Source of the DNA: Nitrospirota bacterium
GTDB taxonomy: Bacteria > Nitrospirota > UBA9217
Direction: 5' to 3'
Assembly (NCBI GenBank): GCA_963796285.1
Contig: CAWCKW010000008.1
Span: forward strand, 1 to 20,537
DNA length: 20,537 bases
How positions within the stretch are numbered: position 1 is the first letter of the stretch; every line of letters begins with the position of its first letter. Positions 1-20,537 of this stretch are shown here, piece after piece. The notes below the pieces were generated by a model, which had not been told where the DNA came from, searched no databases, and saw nothing but the letters and a program-made list of their open reading frames with translations. Position numbers and translations under genes: made by a program.

Positions 1-2187
1 GATAGCCTTAACCGGGGCGAATTGCGGCAGAGCCGATGCCATGTCGTTTATCAGGTCATCAAACGACTGTCGACCACTGGCTTCCGGCCTCCCGGCCGCT
101 TTCATTATATCTTTGATCCATTTCCAGCTTTCCTGAATGTCGCCGTGCGGTTTGAATACCTGAAAGAACCGCTGGGCACGTCCTTCATTGTTCACGAGTG
201 TGCCATCGGATTCGGCGAACGTGCCGGCTGGAAGAGCTATATCTGCTCTTGATGAAGTGGAATTGATGAGATGGTCAATTACGATGACGTTCTTCATATG
301 GTTCAGGAGGGCATCAACGGATTTTTGATCAGTTCTTCGGTAAAGGTCATTCTCAAGGATGATGATAGTGTCGACATTGTTTATACCCTCATCCCGGCCC
401 TCTTCTGCTTGGGGAGAGGGGGCTTTCAGTAATTCGTTCAGATTCTTCCCGTCCATCATTCCTAACCCGAGGCTGTTGCATTCAGGAACCGCGTAGCAGA
501 GTTCTGCTGGTTTGCCGCTTTCGCAGAGTGCCCAAGCGATGTTCGCAGCGGCCTGGATGATGGATTCGTTGGCCATGCTGGTGCCTGAGATGATGAGCGG
601 TTGCCTGGCGCTTTTCAGTGCTTCTGCGATCTCGCTGGCCAGAGGCGTCATATCGACGTTCCCCCTCACCTCGGTCCTCTCCCCGGCAGGGAGAGGGGGT
701 AAATCCGGGGCATCGGGGTTCAACTCATGGGCAATGGCATAGCCGAGTCTGGCGATATCATCGGGTGTCGCATGATATGTTCTCGTCGCAAGTGCATCGA
801 GCTTGGTGCTTACGATGGTCGCGAGATAGAGCGGCCCGGTCTCATTTTGAATGGCATTGCGAATGGCGTTGTCGTCCCACTCCGGGATGCGCATCGCGGC
901 TGATTTTTCCTTGGGTTTGTTCCGCATTGCCTGACGAAGTGCGAGGTCAAGCAGGGGAGCGGTGTTCGAGACGTCCTCGCCGAGGACCAGTACGGCGTCA
1001 GCCAGCTGAACATCGTGAAGCGAGGGAGTGCGCGCTGGGCCTTTCCGCAGAGTGTCGATGATGACGGAGACAAGTTTGTGGTCCGGTCCCGACATGCCGG
1101 AGTAGAAATTTTCGGGCCCGACAGCGTGCGGAGCGCGAAGTTTGATTCCAGCGATGCGCGGGGAGAGCCGATGCCGATGACGCCTTTGCTCCTGGAAAGG
1201 ACATCAGTAATGCGTTGCAGCACAAGTGCCTTGTCTGTCGGTTCCAGCCCCCCCTCACCCTGGCCCTCTCCCGCAAGGGGCGAGGGGTTAATAGAAGCCC
1301 CTCCCTTAACGGGAGGGGTGGAGGAGGGTGATTTTTCCAGTGGTTTCCTAATTCTCTTCTCGCTGTTCACGAATTCATAGCCGAACCGGCCTCGGTCGCA
1401 GAGGAAATAGCCATTCACTTCACTGTTGTACCGGTTCAGTATTCTGCCGAGCGTGCCGTACCGTTCGCCGGGGATGGTGTTGCAGCCCAGGCCGCAATGT
1501 ACGCAGATCGATGGCGCGGTCTGGAGGTCCCACTTGCGCGTGTAATGTCTGTTTGAACGTCTTATCCGTGAATACGCCGGTCGGGCAGATCTCGACGAGG
1601 TTGCCGCTGAACTCGCTTTCGAGCACGCCGTCCTCATGCCGGCCGAAATAGACATGGTCGTGCGACGCGAAGACATCGAAATCCCGGCCGCCCGCGTAGT
1701 CGCGGTAGAACCGGACGCAGCGGTAGCAGTGGATGCAGCGGTTCATCTCATGATTGATGAAGGGCCCGAGGTCCTGGTTCCGGTGCGTGCGTTTCTTGAA
1801 CCGGGTCCTCCGGTAGACGTGGCCGGTCATGACCGTCATATCCTGCAGATGGCATTCGCCGCCCTCGTCGCAGACCGGGCAGTCGTGCGGATGGTTCAGC
1901 ATCAGCCACTCGATAACGCTCGCGCGGAATTTCTTGGCCTCGGGATCGTCGATGGAGATGCGCGTGCCTTCGGCCGCCGGGGTCATGCAGGACATCACGA
2001 TCCTGCCGCGCGTGTCCTTCTCGTCCTTGAACTGCTTTACCGCGCACTGGCGGCAGGCGCCCACGGAATTCATGGCCGGGTGCCAGCAGAAATAGGGTAC
2101 GTCGAAGCCCAGGGAGAGACAGGCCTGGAGCAGGTTCTGGCCTTCCTTGACTTGGTAGGGTTTATTGTCGATGAAGATAGTGACCAT
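1..2187 (-). CDS. nuoG: NADH-quinone oxidoreductase subunit G; 3' end outside the window; several frameshifts
   Basis: N-terminus has [42 protein letters not shown] and ICPTG. Other frames continue with [11 protein letters not shown]...[10 protein letters not shown]. Manual translation of 740->1 gives an open frame with ...[28 protein letters not shown] at 2187. Confidence 0.93.
385..422. repeat. REP-like palindromic repeat (CCCTCA-type) inside nuoG
   Basis: ACCCTCATCCCGGCCCTCTTCTGCTTGGGGAGAGGGGG is a degenerate copy of the repeat at 4512-4548. It reads [12 protein letters not shown] in the NuoG frame. Confidence 0.75.
661..699. repeat. REP-like palindromic repeat (CCCTCA-type) inside nuoG
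   Basis: CCCCCTCACCTCGGTCCTCTCCCCGGCAGGGAGAGGGGG with stem CCTCTCCC/GGGAGAGG. It reads [13 protein letters not shown] in the NuoG frame. Confidence 0.85.
1248..1331. repeat. Inverted doublet of the REP-like repeat inside nuoG
   Basis: CCCCCTCACCCTGGCCCTCTCCCGCAAGGGGCGAGGGG (to 1287) plus an inverted copy CCCCTCCCTTAACGGGAGGGGTGGAGGAGGGTGA (1298-1331). It reads [28 protein letters not shown] in the NuoG frame. Confidence 0.88.
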
Positions 2188-2200
2188 ATAATGCAATATT

Positions 2201-2280
2201 TAGAAAGGATAACTGGACAAAGATCGGATTAAGAGAATTCTTGAGGCCTGTCTATCCTTTGAATCCTGTAATCCTGTCTA
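2201..2280. repeat. Imperfect inverted repeat (GACAGGAT/ATCCTGTC type) at the nuoF-nuoG junction
   Basis: Left arm TAGAAAGGATAACTGGA versus reverse complement of the right arm TAGACAGGATTACAGGA. A related degenerate unit (ATCCTACTATCCTGTC) lies upstream of surE. Confidence 0.55.
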
Positions 2281-3558
2281 AGGTTTTGCTTCCACGGGCA
2301 TTTCTTCTCCCGTATGTGCTTCTCAAAATCCTCCCTGAAATACTTGATCGCACTCTGGAGCGGCTCAACCGCGCCGGGCGCGAGGGCACAGTAGGTGTTG
2401 CCCGGGCCGAGAGTTTGCACTGCTGCGCCAGGATGTCGATATCGCCGGCTCTCACCTCTGCCTTCTTCGATCGCATGGAGAATCTTCTCGATCCAGGGCA
2501 GGCCTTCGCGGCAGGGCGTGCACCAGCCGCAGGACTCCCGTGCAAAAAAGACTTCAGAGGTTATGCACGAACCCGACAGGACAGGTCTTGTCATCGAGCA
2601 TGATCATGGTGCCGGTGCCCAGGCGGCTTCCGGCTTTCATGACCGAGTCGAAGTCCATCTTTACATCGAGATGGTCTGCAACAAGGAAGTCGGTTGACGC
2701 ACCGCCGGGGATCACGCCGCGGAATTGATAGCCGTCCCGCATGCCTCCCGCGTGCTCCTCCAGCAGTTCGCGGACTGGTGACGCCCATGGGCAGTTCCCA
2801 TGCTCCCGGCTTCTTCACCCTGCCGCTTACGCCGTACAGCTTGGTCCCGCCGTCGGGGCTCTTGCTCAGACCCTTGAACCAGTCAGCGCCGTTGTTCACG
2901 ATATGCGGCATGTTCGCGATCGTCTCGGCATTGTTCACGATCGTCGGCCTGCCGAAGAGGCCGCAGACCTGGGGGAAGGGCGGCTTCGCTCTCGGCGTGG
3001 CGCGTTTCCCTTCAAGGGCGTTCAAAAGCGCGGTCTCTTCGCCGCAGATGTAGCGGCCTGCGCTCCCATGGATGCGGAGGTCGAGGTTGAACCCGGAACC
3101 AAGGATATTCTTGCCGAGATAGTTGTGCTCATATGCTTCGGCAATGGCCGCTTCCAGCCGACTTTACCGCCAGCTTGTATGCCCAGCGGATGAAGATAAA
3201 GGCCTGCTCGTGCTTCAATGGCATAGGCGCTGATGATCACGCCCTCGATGATCTGGTGCGGGTCGCCTTCGAGAAGCAGGCGATCCTTGAACGTGCCCGG
3301 CTCCATCTCGTCGGCATTCACGACGAGATATTTGGCGCGGCGCGTTTTCTCCCATGGGAACAAAGCTCCATTTCGCGCCTGTGGGGAAGCCGGCGCCGCC
3401 GCGGCCGCGCAGGTTCGACGCCTTGACGATGTTCTGCACGTCCTGGGGCGACATGGCGAGCGCTTTGCGCACTGACTGGTACCGCCTGCCTTCTCGTAAT
3501 CTTTCAGAGAGAGCGGTTCCTGGCCAGGGCGGATGTTTTTTGTGAGCGGTCGTTCCAT
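2229..3558 (-). CDS. nuoF: NADH-quinone oxidoreductase subunit F (frameshifted as sequenced)
   Basis: Fragments across frames: [91 protein letters not shown] at 3558. The exact stop is uncertain. Confidence 0.92.
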
Positions 3559-3643
3559 AGTAAAATCGTTAAAGTCAGATTCAAGGTTCAGACTAAAGTG
3601 CTGCAGATCAAGATTTTCATAGCCTTTGTCAGTGAATCTGTTT

Positions 3644-4106
3644 CTACTTGTATTTTTCAGTATCTCATCCATCATCTCCGGTGTCACGGGCCCGTACAGG
3701 TCCTCATCCACCATCATGGCCGGGGCGCGGTCGCAGGCGCCGAGGCAGGAGATGGGGAGCAGGGTGAAACGCTTGTCCTCTGTCGTTTCCCCGAAGCGAT
3801 ACCGAGTTTCGTCTTCAGAAGGTCCAGCAGCGGATTGTATCCCATGACCCAGCAGCTGATGCTGTCGCAGACCAGGATCACATGCCTTCCCACCGGCTTC
3901 CGGAAAATGAAGCTGTAGAACGTGGCAACGGCGTCGAGTTCGTCGGGCGTCATGTCGAGCATGCTCGCAACGTCCTTGAGGCTCTCATCGGAGACCCAGC
4001 CGCGGTGATGCTGAACGATGTTGAGCGCGTCGATGGACGCGGACTGCTTCGTGACGCAGTGAGCCAGTTCGGCGTTGATTTCCTGTTTTTCTTGTTCGGT
4101 GAGCAT
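3644..4106 (-). CDS. nuoE: NADH-quinone oxidoreductase subunit E (frameshifted as sequenced)
   Basis: [27 protein letters not shown], then [16 protein letters not shown] in a shifted frame. Probable end KKYK-TAG at 3644 if one A is missing from a homopolymer run. Confidence 0.9.
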
Positions 4107-4117
4107 AATGTAATTAA

Positions 4118-4548
4118 CCTCCTCTCCCCAGGGGGAGAGGATTGAGGTGAGGGGGTAATTGTCTTACTCTGTTGCTCTTATAATGATTTCACAAACACTC
4201 TCAGTATTCATTAAAATGTCCCTATCGCTGAAACGATAATATCGTATGCCTTGTACTTCCAAAGCTTTTTCGGATCTAACTTGTATCTTTTGTTACTCCT
4301 TCATCGGCATAGTGCTGACCGCCGTCTGCTTCAACGGCGATCTTGCATCAGGTGCATAGAAGTCCAGGATATACTTGTCTATAGAAAACTGTATTCTGAA
4401 TTTAATCCGAGCCACTCGCCGATCACGTAAGAGCCACCAAAGTTTTCTTTCCGCGTCAGTCAGATTTCTTCGAAGCTTTCTGCTTCTAGGAATATTGGGT
4501 CGTTTCAACTTCCCCCCTCACCCCATCCCTCTCCCCGCAGGGAGAGGG
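4118..4548. mobile_element. Repeat-flanked DUF559 nuclease cassette inserted between nuoCD and nuoE
   Basis: An AT-rich gene bounded by two oppositely oriented hairpin repeats: CCTCTCCCCAGGGGGAGAGGATTGAGGTGAGGGGG (4121-4155) and CCCCCCTCACCCCATCCCTCTCCCCGCAGGGAGAGGG (4512-4548). Mobility is inferred, not shown. Confidence 0.6.
4164..4508 (-). pseudogene. DUF559 / Vsr-like endonuclease with about 2 frameshifts (decay or sequencing error)
   Basis: RKLRRNLTDAERKLWWLLR, KFRIQ, YILDFY. A shifted frame gives AVEADGGQHY, then LEVQGIRYYRFSDRDILMNTESVCEII to TAA at 4164. Confidence 0.8.
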
Positions 4549-4558
4549 AAATTTCTAA

Positions 4559-6314
4559 TCATCTGTCCAGGTCCGCCAATATAAAATCAATGCTCCCGAG
4601 GATCGCCAGAAGGTCGGCGATCATCAGTCCTTTGCTGATCTTCGGCACCATCTGCAGATGCGGGAACGAAGGCGTCCGGATGCGCGTCCGGTAGGACATG
4701 GTGCTGCCGTCGCTGATCAGATAGTAGCCGTTGTTGCCTTTGGTCGCCTCGATGCCCATGAACGCCTCGCCGGCGGGATCACCGGCCCCAGCTTACGCCG
4801 AGGAAATGGGTGATGAGCGTCTCGATGTCGTGCATGGTGCGTTCCTTGCGGGGAGGGGTCGTGAGCGGATGGTCGGACTTGTAGGGCCTGCGGGCATGTT
4901 GTTCACGCACTGTTCGATGATGCGCAGGCTCTGGCGCATCTCCTCGACGCGGACCACGCCGCGGTCGTAACAGTCGCCATGGGCTGCCGTGGGAATATCG
5001 AACTCGAAGTTCTCATAGCCGGAATAGGGCCGTTTCTTTCTGAAGTCCCAGTCGAATCCGCAGGCGCGGAGCCCGGACCGGTCACGCCCCATTCAATGGC
5101 CTCGTCCATCGTGTAGATCCCGACGCCTTTGGTGCGGGCCTTGAAGATGCTGTTCTGCATCACGATCGTGTCGTATTCCTTGAGCCGCGGAGGCAGGTAG
5201 GTGAGAAAATCGCGCACGAGCCGGTCCCATCCCTTCGGCAGGTCCTGGCCACGCCGCCGATCCGGAACCATGCGGGATGCATGCGGCCGCCGCAGACCGC
5301 CTCGACGATGTCGAAGATGCGCTCGCGGTCCGTGAACATGTAGAACACCGGCGAGAGCGCGCCCACGTCCTGGGCAAAGGTGCCGTACCAGACGAGATGG
5401 CTCGCGATGCGGAAAAGCTCCGCCATCATGACGCGGATGGTCTTGGCCCGGTCAGGCACCTCGATGCCCGCGAGCTTCTCCACGGCAAGGCAGTAGGCCA
5501 TGTTGTTCATCACGCCGCCCAGGTAGTCGACGCGGTCGGTGTAGGGAATGTAGGTGTGCCAGGACTGGCGCTCGGCCATCTTTTCGGCGCCGCGGTGGTG
5601 ATAGCCGATGTCGAGCACGGAGTCCTTGATCTCCTCGCCGTCGAGCTGCAGGATGAAGCGGATCAGGCCATGGGTGCCGGGGTGCTGGGGACCGAGGTTC
5701 AGGAACATGAAGTCCGTGTCTTCCGTCTCGCGCTTCATGCCCCAGTCTTCGGGCCTGAACTTGAGCGCCGTCTGTTCGGCCTCTTCTTTTTCATCAGGCA
5801 GCTGGAACGGGCCCATCTCGGTGGCGCGCGCAGGATGGTCCTTGCGCAGGGGATGGCCTTTCCAGGTCGGCGGCATCAGGATCCTTTTCAGATGCGGGTG
5901 GCCGTCGAACTTGATGCCGAACATGTCCCAGACCTCGCGCTCGTACCAGTTGGCTGACTGCCAGAGATTGGTGATCGTCGGAAGGGCGGCGGATTGCTCC
6001 GGTGAGCGGGACCTTGATGCGGATGTCCTCGTTCCGGTCAAAGGAAAGGAGATGGTACACGACCGTGAAGTCGCTCTCCGGCTGGTCCTGGCGATGATTG
6101 CGCACGCGCTCGTCGATGGCCGTGAGGTCGTAGAGCATCTTATAGGGACGGTCGATGGCTGTCTTGAGATGGCGCAGAACATCGTGACCTTGTCGCGCGA
6201 CACCCAGAGCGTGGGGATGTCGTCGCGCGTGGGCTGTACCGCGAGAATGGAGTCGCCGAAGGCGGTTTTGAGGTCATCGATGATGGGATTGTTTGGGGCA
6301 TAGAGTGAATGCAA
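4559..6314 (-). CDS. nuoCD: NADH-quinone oxidoreductase fused subunit C/D (frameshifted as sequenced)
   Basis: [64 protein letters not shown]-terminal DFILADLDR. The C and D motifs are in one open frame. Start uncertain. Confidence 0.93.
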
Positions 6315-7854: not shown

Positions 7855-9201
7855 CTATTTTGCGGTTGTACCGCCATACCGCTCATTGTAGAACTTCTGG
7901 ATCTTTTCAAGCTGCTCTTTGGTCATGCCCTTGGTATACCACTCGTGCCTGACATCGGTCTCGAGGTATTTTTTCACGATCTCGCTATAGAGCTCCGGAC
8001 CGGCAACGTTCTTTACCTCGGGCAGGAATTCGGTATAGAAGTTCTTGGCCACATCATAGATACCATGCCACCACGCATAATCGGGGCCGGACATGGCCGC
8101 GCCGTGCCGTGCTCTTCTGCCTTCATGGTGCCACAGCTCCCAGTATATCCAGTCCAGCTTGTCGTCGAAATTCGCCTTTGTAAGCTTGCCCTTGTCCATC
8201 AGTTCCTGCCTGATCGCGGTCGCGGGTTTTGCGAATTTGTCGTCATACAGATTGACAAGATTATCGAACTGTTTATAGAACCCTTCCACGAAGGGCGTTG
8301 AATGGCAGCTGCTGCAGACGTTCTGCATGGCAGCGCGCTTTTTATCCGCGTTCTCCATCTTCTTCGAAATGGGCGGCCGAAGCGTCCAGCTGATCCGGGC
8401 GCCTACGTCATGGGTCACTGCCTGTGTCGGCGTGGCGCTCATATGGCAGGTGGCGCAGGTGGGGGCGGCGGAATAATCCTGTCCAACGACCCACTTGTCC
8501 TTGTGCATGTTCATCCGTTCCTTGTTGGCCTCATACAGGATCCCGTGTTTTGATTCCTGGTATACTTCCATCTGCGGATGGTCAGGGCCGAGATGGCATT
8601 TACCGCAGGTCTGGGGCTCCCGCGCCTGCGCCTTTGAGAAACTGTGGCGCGCATGGCAGGCCGAGCAGGACCCCTTGGAGCCGTCAGGGTTTATTCGGCC
8701 GATGCCCGTGTTCGGCCAGCTGTTGGTATCGAGCTTGCCATTTGCAAGGACCTTGACAATGCCGCCATGGCACTGCAGACAGCCGACCGCAACGGCCTCC
8801 TGTCCACCCACGACCTCGCCGAGATAGTTGTCCGCGGAATTGAGGATGTCCCCGGCTTTGGCATGGTGGCTCTCGGTCATCTCCTTTTCTTCCTTAGCGT
8901 GGCATTTGCCGCAGTCCTTGGGAGTGACGAGGATCGCGATCGTATATCCATTGTGCTCCATGGCATCAGGATCGGACTTCTCCGCCTTGTGGCAGGTGTA
9001 GCAGTCTACGCCTTTTGCCGCGTGGGTGCTCAGCTTCCATTCCGTGACAAAGGCTGGTGACTGTGCCTCGTGGCAACCTATGCAGGCCTGACCTTCTTTT
9101 GATACTTTTAGCTTTGCCGCTTCGCCCGACCCGGCATGGAACGTCATGACCATGCTGAGCACCACTGATAGAACAATGATCGATACCTGGTTCCTTTTCA
9201 T
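7855..9201 (-). CDS. Exported octaheme cytochrome c, hydroxylamine oxidoreductase (HAO)-like family
   Basis: Signal peptide and eight CxxCH motifs (CIGCH, CYTCH, CGKCH, CLQCH, CSACH, CGKCH, CATCH, CSSCH). HAO-family segments CHLGPDHPQxEVYxESKHG, APTCATCHM and GPDYAWWHG. Confidence 0.85.
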   Translation of the reverse strand: MKRNQVSIIVLSVVLSMVMTFHAGSGEAAKLKVSKEGQACIGCHEAQSPAFVTEWKLSTHAAKGVDCYTCHKAEKSDPDAMEHNGYTIAILVTPKDCGKCHAKEEKEMTESHHAKAGDILNSADNYLGEVVGGQEAVAVGCLQCHGGIVKVLANGKLDTNSWPNTGIGRINPDGSKGSCSACHARHSFSKAQAREPQTCGKCHLGPDHPQMEVYQESKHGILYEANKERMNMHKDKWVVGQDYSAAPTCATCHMSATPTQAVTHDVGARISWTLRPPISKKMENADKKRAAMQNVCSSCHSTPFVEGFYKQFDNLVNLYDDKFAKPATAIRQELMDKGKLTKANFDDKLDWIYWELWHHEGRRARHGAAMSGPDYAWWHGIYDVAKNFYTEFLPEVKNVAGPELYSEIVKKYLETDVRHEWYTKGMTKEQLEKIQKFYNERYGGTTAK

Positions 9202-16011: not shown

Positions 16012-16054
16012 TTGACAATTACATAAAAATATAATAATATTTGCATATATTATT
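16012..16054 (+). promoter_or_regulatory. arsR promoter with overlapping operator palindrome
   Basis: TTGACA-17 nt-TAATAT. The 22-bp palindrome AATAATATTTG/CATATATTATT (16033-16054, one mismatch) covers the -10 box. Confidence 0.7.
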
Positions 16055-16069
16055 TCGGAGGTAGCATTT

Positions 16070-16411
16070 ATGATCCCCCTGGACAAGCGCATAGATATGC
16101 TCAAGGTTATTGCCCATCCCATTCGAATCAAAATCCTCGAAGATTTGACGCTCGGAGTGAAGTGTGTGAGCGACTTCGAAGAATCCCTCGACATTAGCCA
16201 GCCTAACGTATCACAACATTTGACCCTTCTTCGGACGAATGGAATTGTAGATTTCTTCGTTGACGGCAGGCTCAAGTGCTACTTTCTGAAAGAACCCCTT
16301 ATCCCCGACCTCCTCGAAGTTCTCAAAAAACAGTATGAAGAAGATATCCCGGCTCCTGCTTGCTGTCCGGTAACGAAAAGAGGGACCTACCCCGGTGAAA
16401 GGAGACGTTAA
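16070..16411 (+). CDS. ArsR/SmtB-family transcriptional regulator, Cys-rich
   Basis: LKVIAHPIRIKIL, KCVSD, ISQPNVSQHLTLLR, C-terminal ACCP. GGAGG RBS. Confidence 0.92.
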   Translation: MIPLDKRIDMLKVIAHPIRIKILEDLTLGVKCVSDFEESLDISQPNVSQHLTLLRTNGIVDFFVDGRLKCYFLKEPLIPDLLEVLKKQYEEDIPAPACCPVTKRGTYPGERRR

Positions 16412-16533
16412 TCTGAATGAAGAAAGACTCTCAAACTTGCAATACCGGGTCGACAGATGTCTGTCGCCTGACGGGGCTCTTCATCAAAGAAAGCGACAGG
16501 GTTTGACATTTTAATTTCATTGAGGAGGCCTCT

Positions 16534-16878
16534 ATGCAAAAAGAGATTGTAATGTTTCTTTCCACGACTCCCTACACCTTTGAGAACACGCATACTATTT
16601 TCAAACTAGCGGAGTCTGCTCTGAAGAAGGGGCACCGGGCCAGACTTATTGCCTCGGGCGATGGAGTCTTCTCGATTGTGAAGGGACAGGTACCTCAGGC
16701 GCTTTCCGAGCTGGTAGACCTTGTGGGAAAAGGTCTCAAGGTCGATATCTGAACAGGCTGCATGAAAAGCCGCGGTCTTGCGGCTGACGATTCCATTGAG
16801 GGTGGTGAGATGAGCTCGTTGAAGGGGCTTTTCAATGTTGTGCAGACAAAGCCTATATTCTTAAATTTCGGCATATAA
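16534..16878 (+). CDS. DsrE/TusD-like sulfur-relay selenoprotein, 114 aa, U73-x-x-C76
   Basis: DsrE-type N-terminus (TTPY, SGDGV). The frame continues past TGA 16750-16752 as VDI-U-TGCMKSRGLAADDSIEGGEMSSLKGLFNVVQTKPIFLNFGI-TAA. It ends 10 nt before the next ATG. Confidence 0.88.
16768..16785 (+). promoter_or_regulatory. Candidate SECIS element of the DsrE-like gene
   Basis: AGCCGC-GGTCTT-GCGGCT. Apical G is 22 nt after the UGA. Confidence 0.75.
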
Positions 16879-16888
16879 GGGGGCGATT

Positions 16889-17242
16889 ATGGGGAGCATA
16901 AGCATAATTCTAAGAAGGCCGCCGTACGGGACCGTCGATGCCTCGGAGGCGATCCGCCATGCTCTCGGGGGAGCGACCAATGATATGGAAATAAAGTTGC
17001 TCCTTGTTGACGGGGGGGTCCATGCGGCGAGAAAAGGACAGGATGTATCTGAGACGAAATATTTGAATGCAGGAGACGGTATTCAGGATTGCATTGACAT
17101 GGGAGTTGCGGTCTATGCAGATGAAGCTTCATTGAAAAGGGAACAGATCGGCAATGACTGCATCATCGAGGGCGTAACGGTTACGAATGGCCCAGAAATC
17201 GCAGCTATGATCGGCAAAACAGATACAACGATTGTTTTTTAA
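16889..17242 (+). CDS. DsrF/TusC-like protein
   Basis: ILRRPPYGT...SEAIR, LLVDGGVHAARKGQ, VYADEASLKRE, ending TTIVF. Confidence 0.8.
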   Translation: MGSISIILRRPPYGTVDASEAIRHALGGATNDMEIKLLLVDGGVHAARKGQDVSETKYLNAGDGIQDCIDMGVAVYADEASLKREQIGNDCIIEGVTVTNGPEIAAMIGKTDTTIVF

Positions 17243-19019: not shown

Positions 19020-19047
19020 TTGACATTTACTAAATAAATATTACAAT
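19020..19047 (+). promoter_or_regulatory. Candidate promoter of selD
   Basis: TTGACA-16 nt-TACAAT, 9 nt before the ATG at 19057. Confidence 0.55.
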
Positions 19048-19056
19048 TCAAATATT

Positions 19057-20103
19057 ATGGAAATCAAACTCACACAACTTTCAAGCTGCGCTGGTTGAGC
19101 GGCAAAGTTCAGCCCTGCTGAACTGTCCCAGGTACTGGGACAATTGCCGAAGATCATGGACCCGAATGTGCTTGTGGGCTATTCGAATGCAGACGATGCG
19201 GGTGTTTACCGCGTATCGGACGACCTTGCGATGGTCTTTACCGCTGATTTTTTCACTCCCATCGTCGATGACCCGTACTGGTTCGGTGCGATCGCGGCCG
19301 CAAACTCGCTGTCCGATGTCTACGCGATGGGCGGGAAGCCGCTCGTCTCCCTGAACATCGCATCGCTTCCCCCGGGCCCGGAGTTCGTCGAGATCAACAA
19401 ACGGATCATGCAGGGCGGCATCGACAAGATGACCGAGGCCGGGGTCGCCATCATCGGCGGTCATACGGTCAAGGACAAGGAGCCGAAATTCGGATATGCC
19501 GTGCTGGGTTCCATCCATCCCGATAAAATACTCGATAACGCAAAAGCGAGGCCGGGTGATGCCCTGATCCTGACCAAGATGATCGGCACCGGCGTGATCT
19601 CAACAGGGATCAAGTCCGGGAAATGCAGCGCAGCGACCGCGGACGCGTTCACCAAATCGATGGCAATGCTGAATAAACGTGCGGGCGAGATCATGCTCGA
19701 AGTGGGCGTCAGTACGGCCACGGACATCACGGGCTTCGGTCTGATCGGCCATTTGAACGAGGTGCTCACTGCGAGCAAATGCTCGGCCAGACTCCACGCG
19801 CGCCGCGTCCCTGTTTTCGAGGAGGCGGTAACGTTGGCAGAGAAGGGCGTGGTGCCGGGCGGCACGAAGGGCAATTTGCAGAACTATGATCCTTTTGTAG
19901 AGTGGAGCAGCGATGTTTCCATGACCGATCGTCTCCTGATGAACGACGCACAAACGTCAGGCGGTCTATTGATATTCGTGCCTCAGGTCAGAAAGAACAA
20001 GCTCATTATGGCCCTGCAGAAAGAGCATATCCTGGCGGCCCATATCGGCGATGTGCTCGAAGAAGATGAAAAAGGACCAAAGCGGATCTTCGTGGTGAAA
20101 TAA
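19057..20103 (+). CDS. selD: Selenide,water dikinase SelD, Sec-containing (U14), 348 aa
   Basis: MEIKLTQLSSCAG-U-AAKFSP is in frame with ORF 19144..20103 (DDAGVY, DFFTPIVDDPY, ANSLSDVYAMGG, GGHT, TDITGFGLIGH, DAQTSGGLL). TGA at 19096-19098. Confidence 0.95.
19106..19142 (+). promoter_or_regulatory. Tandem hairpins after the selD UGA; candidate SECIS
   Basis: AGTTCAGC-CCT-GCTGAACT (19106-19124) and TGTCCCAG-GTA-CTGGGACA (19124-19142), both perfect 8-bp stems. Confidence 0.65.
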
Positions 20104-20537
20104 ATGGACGCCACCTTTACGGTCTTTCTGGCACTGGTCGGCGCATCCGTCGGTTTTCTCTCGGGCCTGCTCGGGATAGGCGGAGGCATCGTCATGTTTC
20201 CGCTCTTGCTCTACGTGCCGCCGCTTCTGGGTTTCAACGGAATAGATGTTAAAAGCATCACCGGCCTCACGATGATCCAGGGCTTTTTCTCCGCGCTCAC
20301 GGCGATGTTCTACTACAAAAAGAACGCCCTGGTGAATAAATCACTGGTCCTTACGCTCGGCTTTTCCCTGTTTCTCTCGTCACTGATCGGAGCGCTGGTG
20401 TCGAAGAAGATACCGGACGGACCTCTGCTTATGGTCTTCGCGACGCTGGCATTGATCGCGGCGGCGATGATGCTCATTCCCCGAAGTTACCATCAGGACG
20501 AACTGACCGAGGAACACGTTGTTTTCCACAGGACCAC
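20104..20537 (+). CDS. TauE/SafE (TSUP) family transporter, 3' end outside the window
   Basis: The ATG directly follows the selD TAA. MDATFTVFLALVGASVGFLSGLLGIGGGIVMFPLL..., several hydrophobic segments, open to the window end. Confidence 0.88.
   Translation, partial: MDATFTVFLALVGASVGFLSGLLGIGGGIVMFPLLLYVPPLLGFNGIDVKSITGLTMIQGFFSALTAMFYYKKNALVNKSLVLTLGFSLFLSSLIGALVSKKIPDGPLLMVFATLALIAAAMMLIPRSYHQDELTEEHVVFHRT

Follow-up and report, generated by a model that had tools for sequence, protein, structure and literature searches.

We analyzed a 20,537-nucleotide (nt) stretch of DNA from a Nitrospirota bacterium (GenBank assembly GCA_963796285.1, contig CAWCKW010000008.1; hereafter the window) and find that its positions 16534-16878 very probably form a genuine selenoprotein gene, here called dsrE(U), in which UGA codon 73 is read as selenocysteine (Sec, U). 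The predicted product is a DsrE/YchN-like protein with Sec in place of the catalytic cysteine, and dsrE(U) is the first gene of a triad of dsrE-, dsrF- and dsrH-like genes (E-F-H) encoded together with a homolog of sulfide:quinone reductase (SQR). Sec decoding is very probable because the TGA is conserved in all 51 orthologous sequences examined, the codons past it evolve as coding sequence, a hairpin downstream of it is conserved, homologs carry cysteine at the same alignment column, and the source genome encodes the machinery for Sec insertion.

Conservation of the UGA codon and of the frame beyond it

Translation with table 11 from the ATG at 16534, which is preceded by a GAGGAGG ribosome-binding site (RBS), gives an open reading frame (ORF) of 72 amino acids (aa) ended by the TGA. 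With TGA read as Sec, 41 further codons follow up to a TAA at 16876-16878 and the product has 114 aa. The local sequence of the read-through is K-V-D-I-U-T-G-C-M-K-S-R-G-L, with the motif U73-T-G-C76...R80-G81, and the TAA lies 10 nt ahead of the ATG of the dsrF-like gene at 16889, whose RBS is GGGGG. A first-pass annotation of the window, made from the sequence alone, had given these coordinates, the 72-aa ORF, the 114-aa read-through product and its end beside the dsrF-like RBS, and all were the same when re-read. The Pfam DsrE model matches the read-through protein over residues 5-104 (6.7e-12; 46.1 bits against a cut-off of 22.7).

Scanning a single genome for each species, we recovered 50 related loci, every one of them in a Nitrospirota or Thermodesulfovibrionales record and 70-95% identical over residues 1-114. 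The codon that corresponds to the TGA of the window is TGA in 51/51 sequences (the window and the 50 loci, which come from different Nitrospirota genome records). Stops occur solely at codons 73 and 115 in 45/50 whole-gene sequences, a count from which one locus with its 5' end cut off (L050) was excluded; the remaining five are three with a one-codon deletion and hence a stop at codon 114, one that has no stop at codon 115 and changes frame near its end (L011), and one with an early stop (L046). Contigs from 4 public sequencing runs, belonging to 4 studies, also cover the TGA and carry no alternative letter in 16693-16802, outside of which they do differ from the window. The TGC or TGT that the first-pass annotation had proposed to look for at this place is found neither in the 51 sequences nor in the 4 runs, and sequencing error was therefore rejected as the source of the TGA. 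Genome-wide reassignment of TGA was also rejected, since TGA is the ordinary stop of 4/17 genes in the window.

The codons downstream of the TGA behave as coding sequence. Across the 45 sequences without gaps, codon positions 1, 2 and 3 have a nucleotide diversity of 0.120, 0.074 and 0.585 for codons 2-72, and 0.147, 0.061 and 0.463 for codons 74-114. This coding-like pattern, which bears out the proposed conservation of the 41 downstream codons, indicates that codons 74-114 are under protein-level selection, i.e. translated. Residues T74, G75 and C76 do not vary in the same sequences, although their codons do (4, 4 and 2 codons, respectively), which rules out a restart of translation at the conserved ATG codon 77.

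In order to examine the alignment column of the UGA, we used full-length relatives (at most 46% identity) retrieved by a HMMER scan of 1.84 billion representative proteins. Among 39 full-length homologs aligned with the query, the U73 column holds Cys in 38 and Ser in one, as the first-pass annotation had led us to expect, and the columns of C76, R80 and G81 hold Cys in 29, Arg in 37 and Gly in 35. A profile built from the resulting 40-sequence alignment and matched to PDB has its best match in YchN (1jx7, 7.5e-22, 80.4 bits), followed by Allochromatium vinosum DsrE (1.7e-17) and Escherichia coli TusD (4.2e-15); it was used in place of a single-sequence PDB search, which returned spurious matches to designed PPR proteins and YchN only weakly. 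In the profile, U73 falls on the Cys of VVCVAAAQRRG (DsrE) and of NICVAAALRRG (TusD), so that the suggested placement of Sec at the catalytic position, within a C-x6-RG context, holds by profile alignment. The active Cys of DsrE is Cys78 (PMC13293266). Membership in the YchN-like branch is supported by the CxxC...RG motif together with the best profile match to YchN. Since 29/39 Cys homologs also carry CxxC, having a second Cys does not set the Sec form apart, and the two-residue site, with the contrast that it makes to the single-Cys DsrE and TusD, is a trait of the whole YchN-like branch.

The AlphaFold2 (AF2) model of the 114-aa protein (mean predicted local distance difference test, pLDDT, 95.7) contains a complete DsrE domain, in which U73 is placed at the end of strand 69-73 and the start of helix 74-79. 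The residues after U73 provide two of the five strands (91-94 and 108-112) and the helices 74-79 and 96-103, so that a 72-aa product is predicted to be half a domain without the active site. The top Foldseek matches are TusD (2d1p_A), YchN (1jx7_A) and DsrE (2hy5_A), with template modeling (TM) scores of 0.83-0.86.

A hairpin past the UGA and the decoding of codon 73

A hairpin resembling a selenocysteine insertion sequence (SECIS) begins 15 nt past the TGA. Its stem is formed by AGCCGC (16768-16773) and GCGGCU (16780-16785), and its loop is GGUCUU (16774-16779), with a gap of 21 nt between TGA and loop. The 'GGUCU' loop of the first-pass annotation was essentially right, the loop being GGUCUU, or GUCU if a G.U pair closes it; that annotation also pointed to the GGUCU apex of the E. 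coli fdhF SECIS, which the loop may resemble. Covariation was evaluated on the 51-sequence alignment, which amounts to 45 distinct rows, with 500 shuffles. In this alignment 91.5% of stem cells are paired, as compared with 27-45% when the partners are slid by 1-3 columns, and the covariation score of 0.184 (shuffles 0.090 ± 0.013) is reached by 0/500 shuffles. Compensatory changes are seen at pair 20:35, which occurs as G-C (21), C-G (14) and U-A (1), and at pair 24:31, which occurs in A-U, U-A and U-G forms; RNAalifold returns the same helix unprompted. Third-position diversity in the 45 sequences is 0.04, 0.13, 0.04, 0.04 and 0.00 for codons 79-83, against 0.38-0.75 for the flanking codons 66-72 and 85-92, and Gly81 is GGT in 44/45 sequences, whereas Gly67 and Gly91 use all four Gly codons. 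These patterns indicate that the hairpin is constrained as RNA in addition to its constraint as coding sequence. Bacterial SECIS elements have been characterized as a stem-loop a short way past the UGA whose small apical loop includes G (PMC1088965), and the candidate hairpin has these features, as judged by comparison of sequences and not by energy.

The source genome (13 contigs, completeness 96.2%, contamination 5.0%) contains selA, selB, selC and selD. The genes selB (369.6 bits) and selA (595.4 bits) adjoin each other and score above curated cut-offs, and the tRNA-Sec has the anticodon UCA. The selD gene lies in the window and is itself a selenoprotein gene (MEIKLTQLSSCAGUAAKF...), of which table 11 gives just a 319-aa ORF from 19144. 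Two hairpins are found 3' of the selD TGA, either one of which is a candidate SECIS. SelB and tRNA-Sec would decode UGA 73 of dsrE(U), directed by the hairpin 15 nt downstream, and Sec would take the place of the catalytic Cys (the Cys78 column) where a helix begins, with the invariant Cys76 three residues further on, giving a UxxC site.

Two other fates of the UGA have to be considered. It is extremely improbable that the codon is a true stop, with a 72-aa fragment as product, perhaps accompanied by a 38-aa peptide from ATG77, or that the gene is decaying. Gene callers do end the protein there: in a collection of 5.8 billion proteins we found 222 relatives, and all 120 that were listed end at residue 72 and cover 61-63% of the query, most being exactly 72 aa long. 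A 38-aa product from codon 77 has been called once as a gene of its own (P0134), and ATG77 is present in 44/45 sequences. However, codons 74-76, between the TGA and ATG77, show the invariant residues and synonymous changes described above, the 12 nt before ATG77 are too short for an RBS, the 72-aa fragment would lack the active site in the AF2 model, and the arrangement is kept across 50 genomes at 70-95% identity. Reading of the UGA as a standard amino acid (Trp, Cys, Arg or Gly) is very improbable as well. Near-cognate read-through of UGA does occur in bacteria, but this genome has the full Sec machinery and a conserved hairpin at SECIS distance, and the UGA falls exactly on the catalytic Cys column, which is the hallmark of Sec/Cys pairs.

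Several observations weigh against Sec decoding or against the gene cluster as we describe it. The outer two pairs of the stem fail to form in 13 and 9, respectively, of the 45 distinct sequences, so that the invariant core of the hairpin is only 4 bp. Folding energy is unremarkable (z = -0.12 for 46 nt of context and -0.47 for 61 nt), the minimum-energy fold of the 61 nt picks other pairs, and only the isolated 26-mer of the hairpin reaches z = -2.47. Folding energy was non-significant in both longer contexts and was dropped as evidence, and the case for the hairpin therefore rests on the comparative data. Rfam at gathering threshold returned only a tRNA-Pro, a result that weighs neither way, as Rfam may have no model of the bacterial SECIS. 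The read-through protein has no match to any NCBIfam model in the NCBIfam scan, and the SQR homolog is not directly 3' of the triad in 16/50 loci. The assembly is imperfect in base quality, with many frameshift-like breaks elsewhere, although 50 other records and 4 runs agree on the TGA.

Genomic neighborhood and paralogs of dsrE(U)

The cluster around dsrE(U) consists, in order, of a gene for an ArsR-like regulator, dsrE(U), a dsrF-like gene, a dsrH-like gene and the SQR homolog (Table 1). The first-pass annotation had spoken of a complete E-F-H triad, and this is what the related loci contain: right after dsrE(U), the dsrF-like gene is present in 50/50 loci and the dsrH-like gene in 49/50, the exception being a locus that stops at a contig end. 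Of the three subunits, E varies least, at 70-95% identity; the ranges for F and H are 47-93% and 40-100%. The dsrF-like protein has no Cys at the active-site column; its Cys68 is invariant. An invariant Asp-Cys pair, D67-C68, is found in 17/17 dsrF-like sequences, off the canonical active-site column. The dsrH-like protein of the window has no Cys, and many of its orthologs have one or two.

The gene for the ArsR-family protein precedes dsrE(U), in the same orientation, in 44/50 loci, and this protein is probably the regulator of the cluster; the BigR model gives it 49.1 bits, under the cut-off of 155. The SQR homolog follows the triad directly in 34/50 loci, and its Cys residues in VSCFGP and in ICxxDxG are both aligned with Cys of 3hyv. 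Beyond this core, recurrent neighbors are an MMPL-type transporter (14 loci) and a DrsE_2-family protein (5 loci), neither of which settles the function; several further neighbor clusters are antisense ORFs and were disregarded. No recurrent tusA or yeeE neighbor was found in the 3-kb flanks of the 50 loci (families in at least 4 loci examined), and there is no TusA or YeeE match among the scanned window ORFs next to the cluster. One locus (L038), in a metagenome-assembled genome labelled Thermodesulfovibrio yellowstonii, has a different setting: instead of SQR, the genes beside the triad encode a class-V aminotransferase, a SLAC1/TehA-type anion channel and a DrsE_2 protein (flanking genes at 1316-2557 on the minus strand and 4102-5718 on the plus strand). 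Class-V aminotransferases include cysteine desulfurases and selenocysteine lyases.

Table 1. Features of the dsrE(U) region and of the type-2 locus L070; positions refer to the window unless L070 is given.
Feature	Position	Strand	Evidence
Promoter-like site before the ArsR gene	16012-16040		Consensus match only
ArsR/SmtB-family regulator, weakly BigR-like	16070..16411	+	Pfam HTH_5 1.2e-10; NCBIfam HTH_metalloreg 66.4 bits (cut-off 55)
RBS GAGGAGG of dsrE(U)	16522..16528	+	Direct sequence reading
dsrE(U), predicted 114-aa DsrE/YchN-like protein, Sec73	16534..16878	+	Pfam DsrE, AF2, Foldseek, coding periodicity past TGA
In-frame TGA, predicted U73	16750..16752	+	TGA in 51/51 orthologs; Cys in 38/39 homologs; 4 runs agree
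SECIS-like hairpin, 6-bp stem, loop GGUCUU	16768..16785	+	Covariation, frozen third positions, RNAalifold
dsrF/tusC-like subunit, 117 aa	16889..17242	+	Pfam DsrE 2.6e-14; NCBIfam TusC 35.4 bits, below cut-off 94.15
dsrH/tusB-like subunit, 93 aa	17254..17535	+	Pfam DsrH 2e-09; NCBIfam TusB 40.3 bits, below cut-off 49.2
SQR homolog, 396 aa	17561..18751	+	PDB SQR 3hyv 1.7e-99 and 3sy4 2e-97, residues 3-391
Promoter-like site before selD	19020-19047		Consensus match only
selD, in-frame TGA 19096-19098 (SSCAGUAAKF)	19057..20103	+	NCBIfam selD 356 bits
TauE/SafE-family membrane protein, cut at window end	20104..20535	+	Pfam TauE 3.9e-20; after selD also in G043
Type-2 E2(U) gene	L070 2933-3289	+	Sec-bearing paralog of dsrE(U)

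The selD gene of the window, followed by tauE, is probably a transcription unit separate from the dsrE(U) cluster. Adjacency of selD and the cluster is seen in 2/50 loci only and was rejected as a general trait of the cluster; the order of these genes differs in a genome of the same genus (G043).

The source genome encodes a second triad on another contig (C13:64038-66166; L069 1033-2950, minus strand), where all-Cys dsrH-like, dsrE-like and dsrF-like genes lie directly beside dsrC (165 bits). The dsrE-like protein of this triad, with the motif VCEACAEARG, has Cys at the U73 column and is 29% identical to the window protein. A few kb from the Cys triad, dsrA is present in two frame-shifted pieces; a third region beside them matches the dsrA model more weakly and has one TGA. 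As judged from sequence, the Sec triad is a paralog of the dsr-linked Cys triad in the same cell.

A second Sec-bearing type was found in the same order. Among 64 genomes of the order, 47/47 matches with at least 40% identity to the window protein hold exactly one TGA. They fall into type 1, to which the window gene belongs (18 rows from 17 genomes, 66-99% identity), and type 2 (29 rows from 25 genomes, 40-48% identity), which has the motif U-G-G-C. A DsrE-like gene with an in-frame TGA at the catalytic column is present in 42/64 of these genomes, and the two types occur together in 0/64. In the type-2 locus of the same-genus genome (L070; G043:C49:56500-63500) the gene order is selD(U)-tauE-E2(I-U-G-G-C-L-N-F-R-R)-F-H-SQR-DrsE_2, so that SQR directly follows the triad there as well. 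The type-2 hairpin (UUCGCC-GUGC-GGCGAA), 16 nt past its TGA, differs in sequence from the type-1 hairpin and yet takes up the same position, which speaks for Sec decoding.

Relation to known systems and possible function

The idea of a DsrE-like selenoprotein with a UxxC site is 20 years old, and the gene itself will be no surprise to specialists. A 'DsrE-like protein, PF02635, UxxC' was predicted from 2 Sargasso Sea sequences by Zhang, Fomenko and Gladyshev in 2005 (PMC1088965), in agreement with a remark in the first-pass annotation that such proteins had been predicted before. One DsrE-like selenoprotein of Desulfovibrio vulgaris was listed in 2006 (PMC1794560), a further published member is WP_014524487.1, and the family is still listed, with no function given in the entries, in reviews of 2022 (PMC9312934) and 2026 (PMC13188914). 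By description, on which the comparison is based, the published family shares with dsrE(U) the Pfam DsrE domain, the UxxC Sec, Cys homologs and a small G-loop hairpin past the UGA, and its descriptions come without function or gene context. Unlike those entries, the window gene heads an E-F-H triad with SQR, recurs in 50 Nitrospirota records and has a second Sec paralog type. We found no description of a Sec-bearing DsrEFH-type triad in the literature searched (DsrEFH/TusD with selenocysteine; DsrE selenoprotein with Nitrospir*). What is new is the E-F-H/SQR setting, the second Sec-bearing paralog type in the same order and the stop after 72 aa in all 120 listed relatives, and dsrE(U) appears to be a widespread, unannotated Nitrospirota member of the predicted family. 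A search with residues 66-114 yielded no full-length relative among database proteins of 62-200 aa.

The E-F-H triad most likely assembles like TusBCD and DsrEFH, as suggested by its gene families and gene order. Type I DsrEFH (A. vinosum, 2HY5) and TusBCD (E. coli, 2D1P) are likewise encoded by three adjacent genes of the DsrE, DsrE/F and DsrH families, their active Cys (C-x6-RG) corresponds to the U73 column, and the folds agree with TM scores of 0.83-0.85. The window E protein differs in having Sec and a second Cys three residues on, where DsrE and TusD have Ala. The F- and H-like proteins do not reach the curated TusC and TusB cut-offs, E has no NCBIfam match, the DsrH-like protein has no Cys, and the triad sits with ArsR and SQR instead of beside dsr or tus genes. 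YchN of E. coli (1JX7; TM 0.86), presumably a stand-alone homo-oligomer of unknown function, has the same CxxC...RG motif (LCKTCTDGRG), with Cys where the window protein has Sec.

DsrEFH type II, described from cable bacteria and sulfate reducers (Plum-Jensen et al. 2026, PMC13293266), is a heterotrimer of organisms with reductive dsrAB; its subtype 1 is mostly from Nitrospirota, conserved Cys67 is the transfer residue, and the genes are syntenic with tusA and yeeE/yedE. That study covers 985 genomes, in which 0.7% of sequences have no Cys, and reports that type II had been missed by sequence annotation; the string 'selen' occurs 0 times in its main text. The window triad resembles type II, as described there, in being DsrEFH-like and in its Nitrospirota host, and differs from it in being recognized by Pfam and in sitting with ArsR and SQR. 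YedF (TIGR03527), which has a DsrE-like C-terminal domain with CGxC and is tied to selD by comparative genomics (PMC5322559), is described as a fusion with a SirA/TusA-like domain that has Cys and not Sec, no F or H partner and no SQR, unlike the window gene.

Co-inheritance with SQR and an ArsR-type regulator, together with separation from the dsrC-linked Cys triad, suggests a mechanism that involves sulfane sulfur, for and against which we regard the case as a whole as evenly balanced. U73 would take sulfane sulfur from SQR or polysulfide to give a Se-S-S(H) adduct, from which either the sulfur would be handed to a carrier, with C76 as a helper, or C76 would resolve it by forming a Se-S bond, whereupon sulfide would leave; both steps would be fast owing to the low pKa and high nucleophilicity of Sec. 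A selenenyl-sulfide redox pair at U73/C76, as proposed in the first-pass annotation, is plausible. Sec is chemically equivalent to or better than Cys. Because CxxC is common in the Cys homologs, the chemistry is most likely unchanged in kind and only accelerated by Sec. Beyond this, we tentatively propose a selenium-dependent sulfur (or selenium) relay of Nitrospirota, in which a Sec-containing DsrEFH-type complex and SQR would act under a thiol-sensing ArsR-type regulator.

Two other functions may be set against the sulfane-sulfur mechanism. The triad could be a plain DsrEFH that donates sulfur to DsrC in the Dsr pathway, like DsrEFH of types I and II, with Sec merely a faster catalytic residue. 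The source genome does have dsrC and the dsrA matches on C13, U73 aligns with the DsrE Cys, and DsrEFH-like complexes of sulfate reducers have been reported to transfer sulfur in vitro (PMC13293266). This role is nevertheless unlikely, considering that an all-Cys H-E-F triad is already present directly beside dsrC, that the Sec triad is encoded on a different contig with SQR and ArsR, that tusA and yeeE do not recur in the flanks examined, and that the window DsrH-like protein has no Cys. Alternatively, the triad and SQR might form a selenium-handling module, in which selenide or perselenide on U73/C76 would be delivered to or buffered for SelD. Points in its favor are selD(U) and tauE adjoining the cluster in the window and standing, in another order, beside the type-2 triad of the same-genus genome, the genes flanking the triad in L038, and the CGxC DsrE-like domain of YedF, a candidate selenium-metabolism protein (PMC5322559). 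However, selD is found within the 3-kb flanks of only 2/50 loci and has its own promoter-like site, its adjacency within one genus may reflect shared ancestry and not function, and the neighboring enzyme is a close homolog of true sulfide:quinone reductases, all of which makes such a module unlikely as well.

DsrEFH-type relays serve as genomic markers that separate sulfur oxidizers from sulfate reducers, and the 2026 study extended DsrEFH to many sulfate reducers, with no selenium in its main text (PMC13293266). If the proposed relay exists, part of the turnover of sulfide and sulfane sulfur, or of the supply of selenide to SelD, would be selenium-dependent in many sulfate-reducing or sulfur-disproportionating Nitrospirota, and the relay would have escaped surveys of DsrEFH distribution, since gene calling reduces the E subunit to a stump of 72 aa. 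Annotation of dsrE(U) as a selenoprotein gene would correct such marker-gene surveys and add a widespread member to the Nitrospirota selenoproteome. The natural pair of Sec and Cys triads in one genome would offer a test of the contribution of Sec to persulfide relay chemistry.

Elsewhere in the window, nuoG, nuoF, nuoE and nuoCD (1-6314, minus strand) are each split into several ORFs in different frames with partial domains. These breaks, and those in dsrA of contig C13, look like assembly indel errors and not biology. Beside the nuo genes, positions 7855-9201 (minus strand) encode a multi-haem cytochrome c of 448 aa (Pfam Multi-haem_cyto, 1.7e-27).

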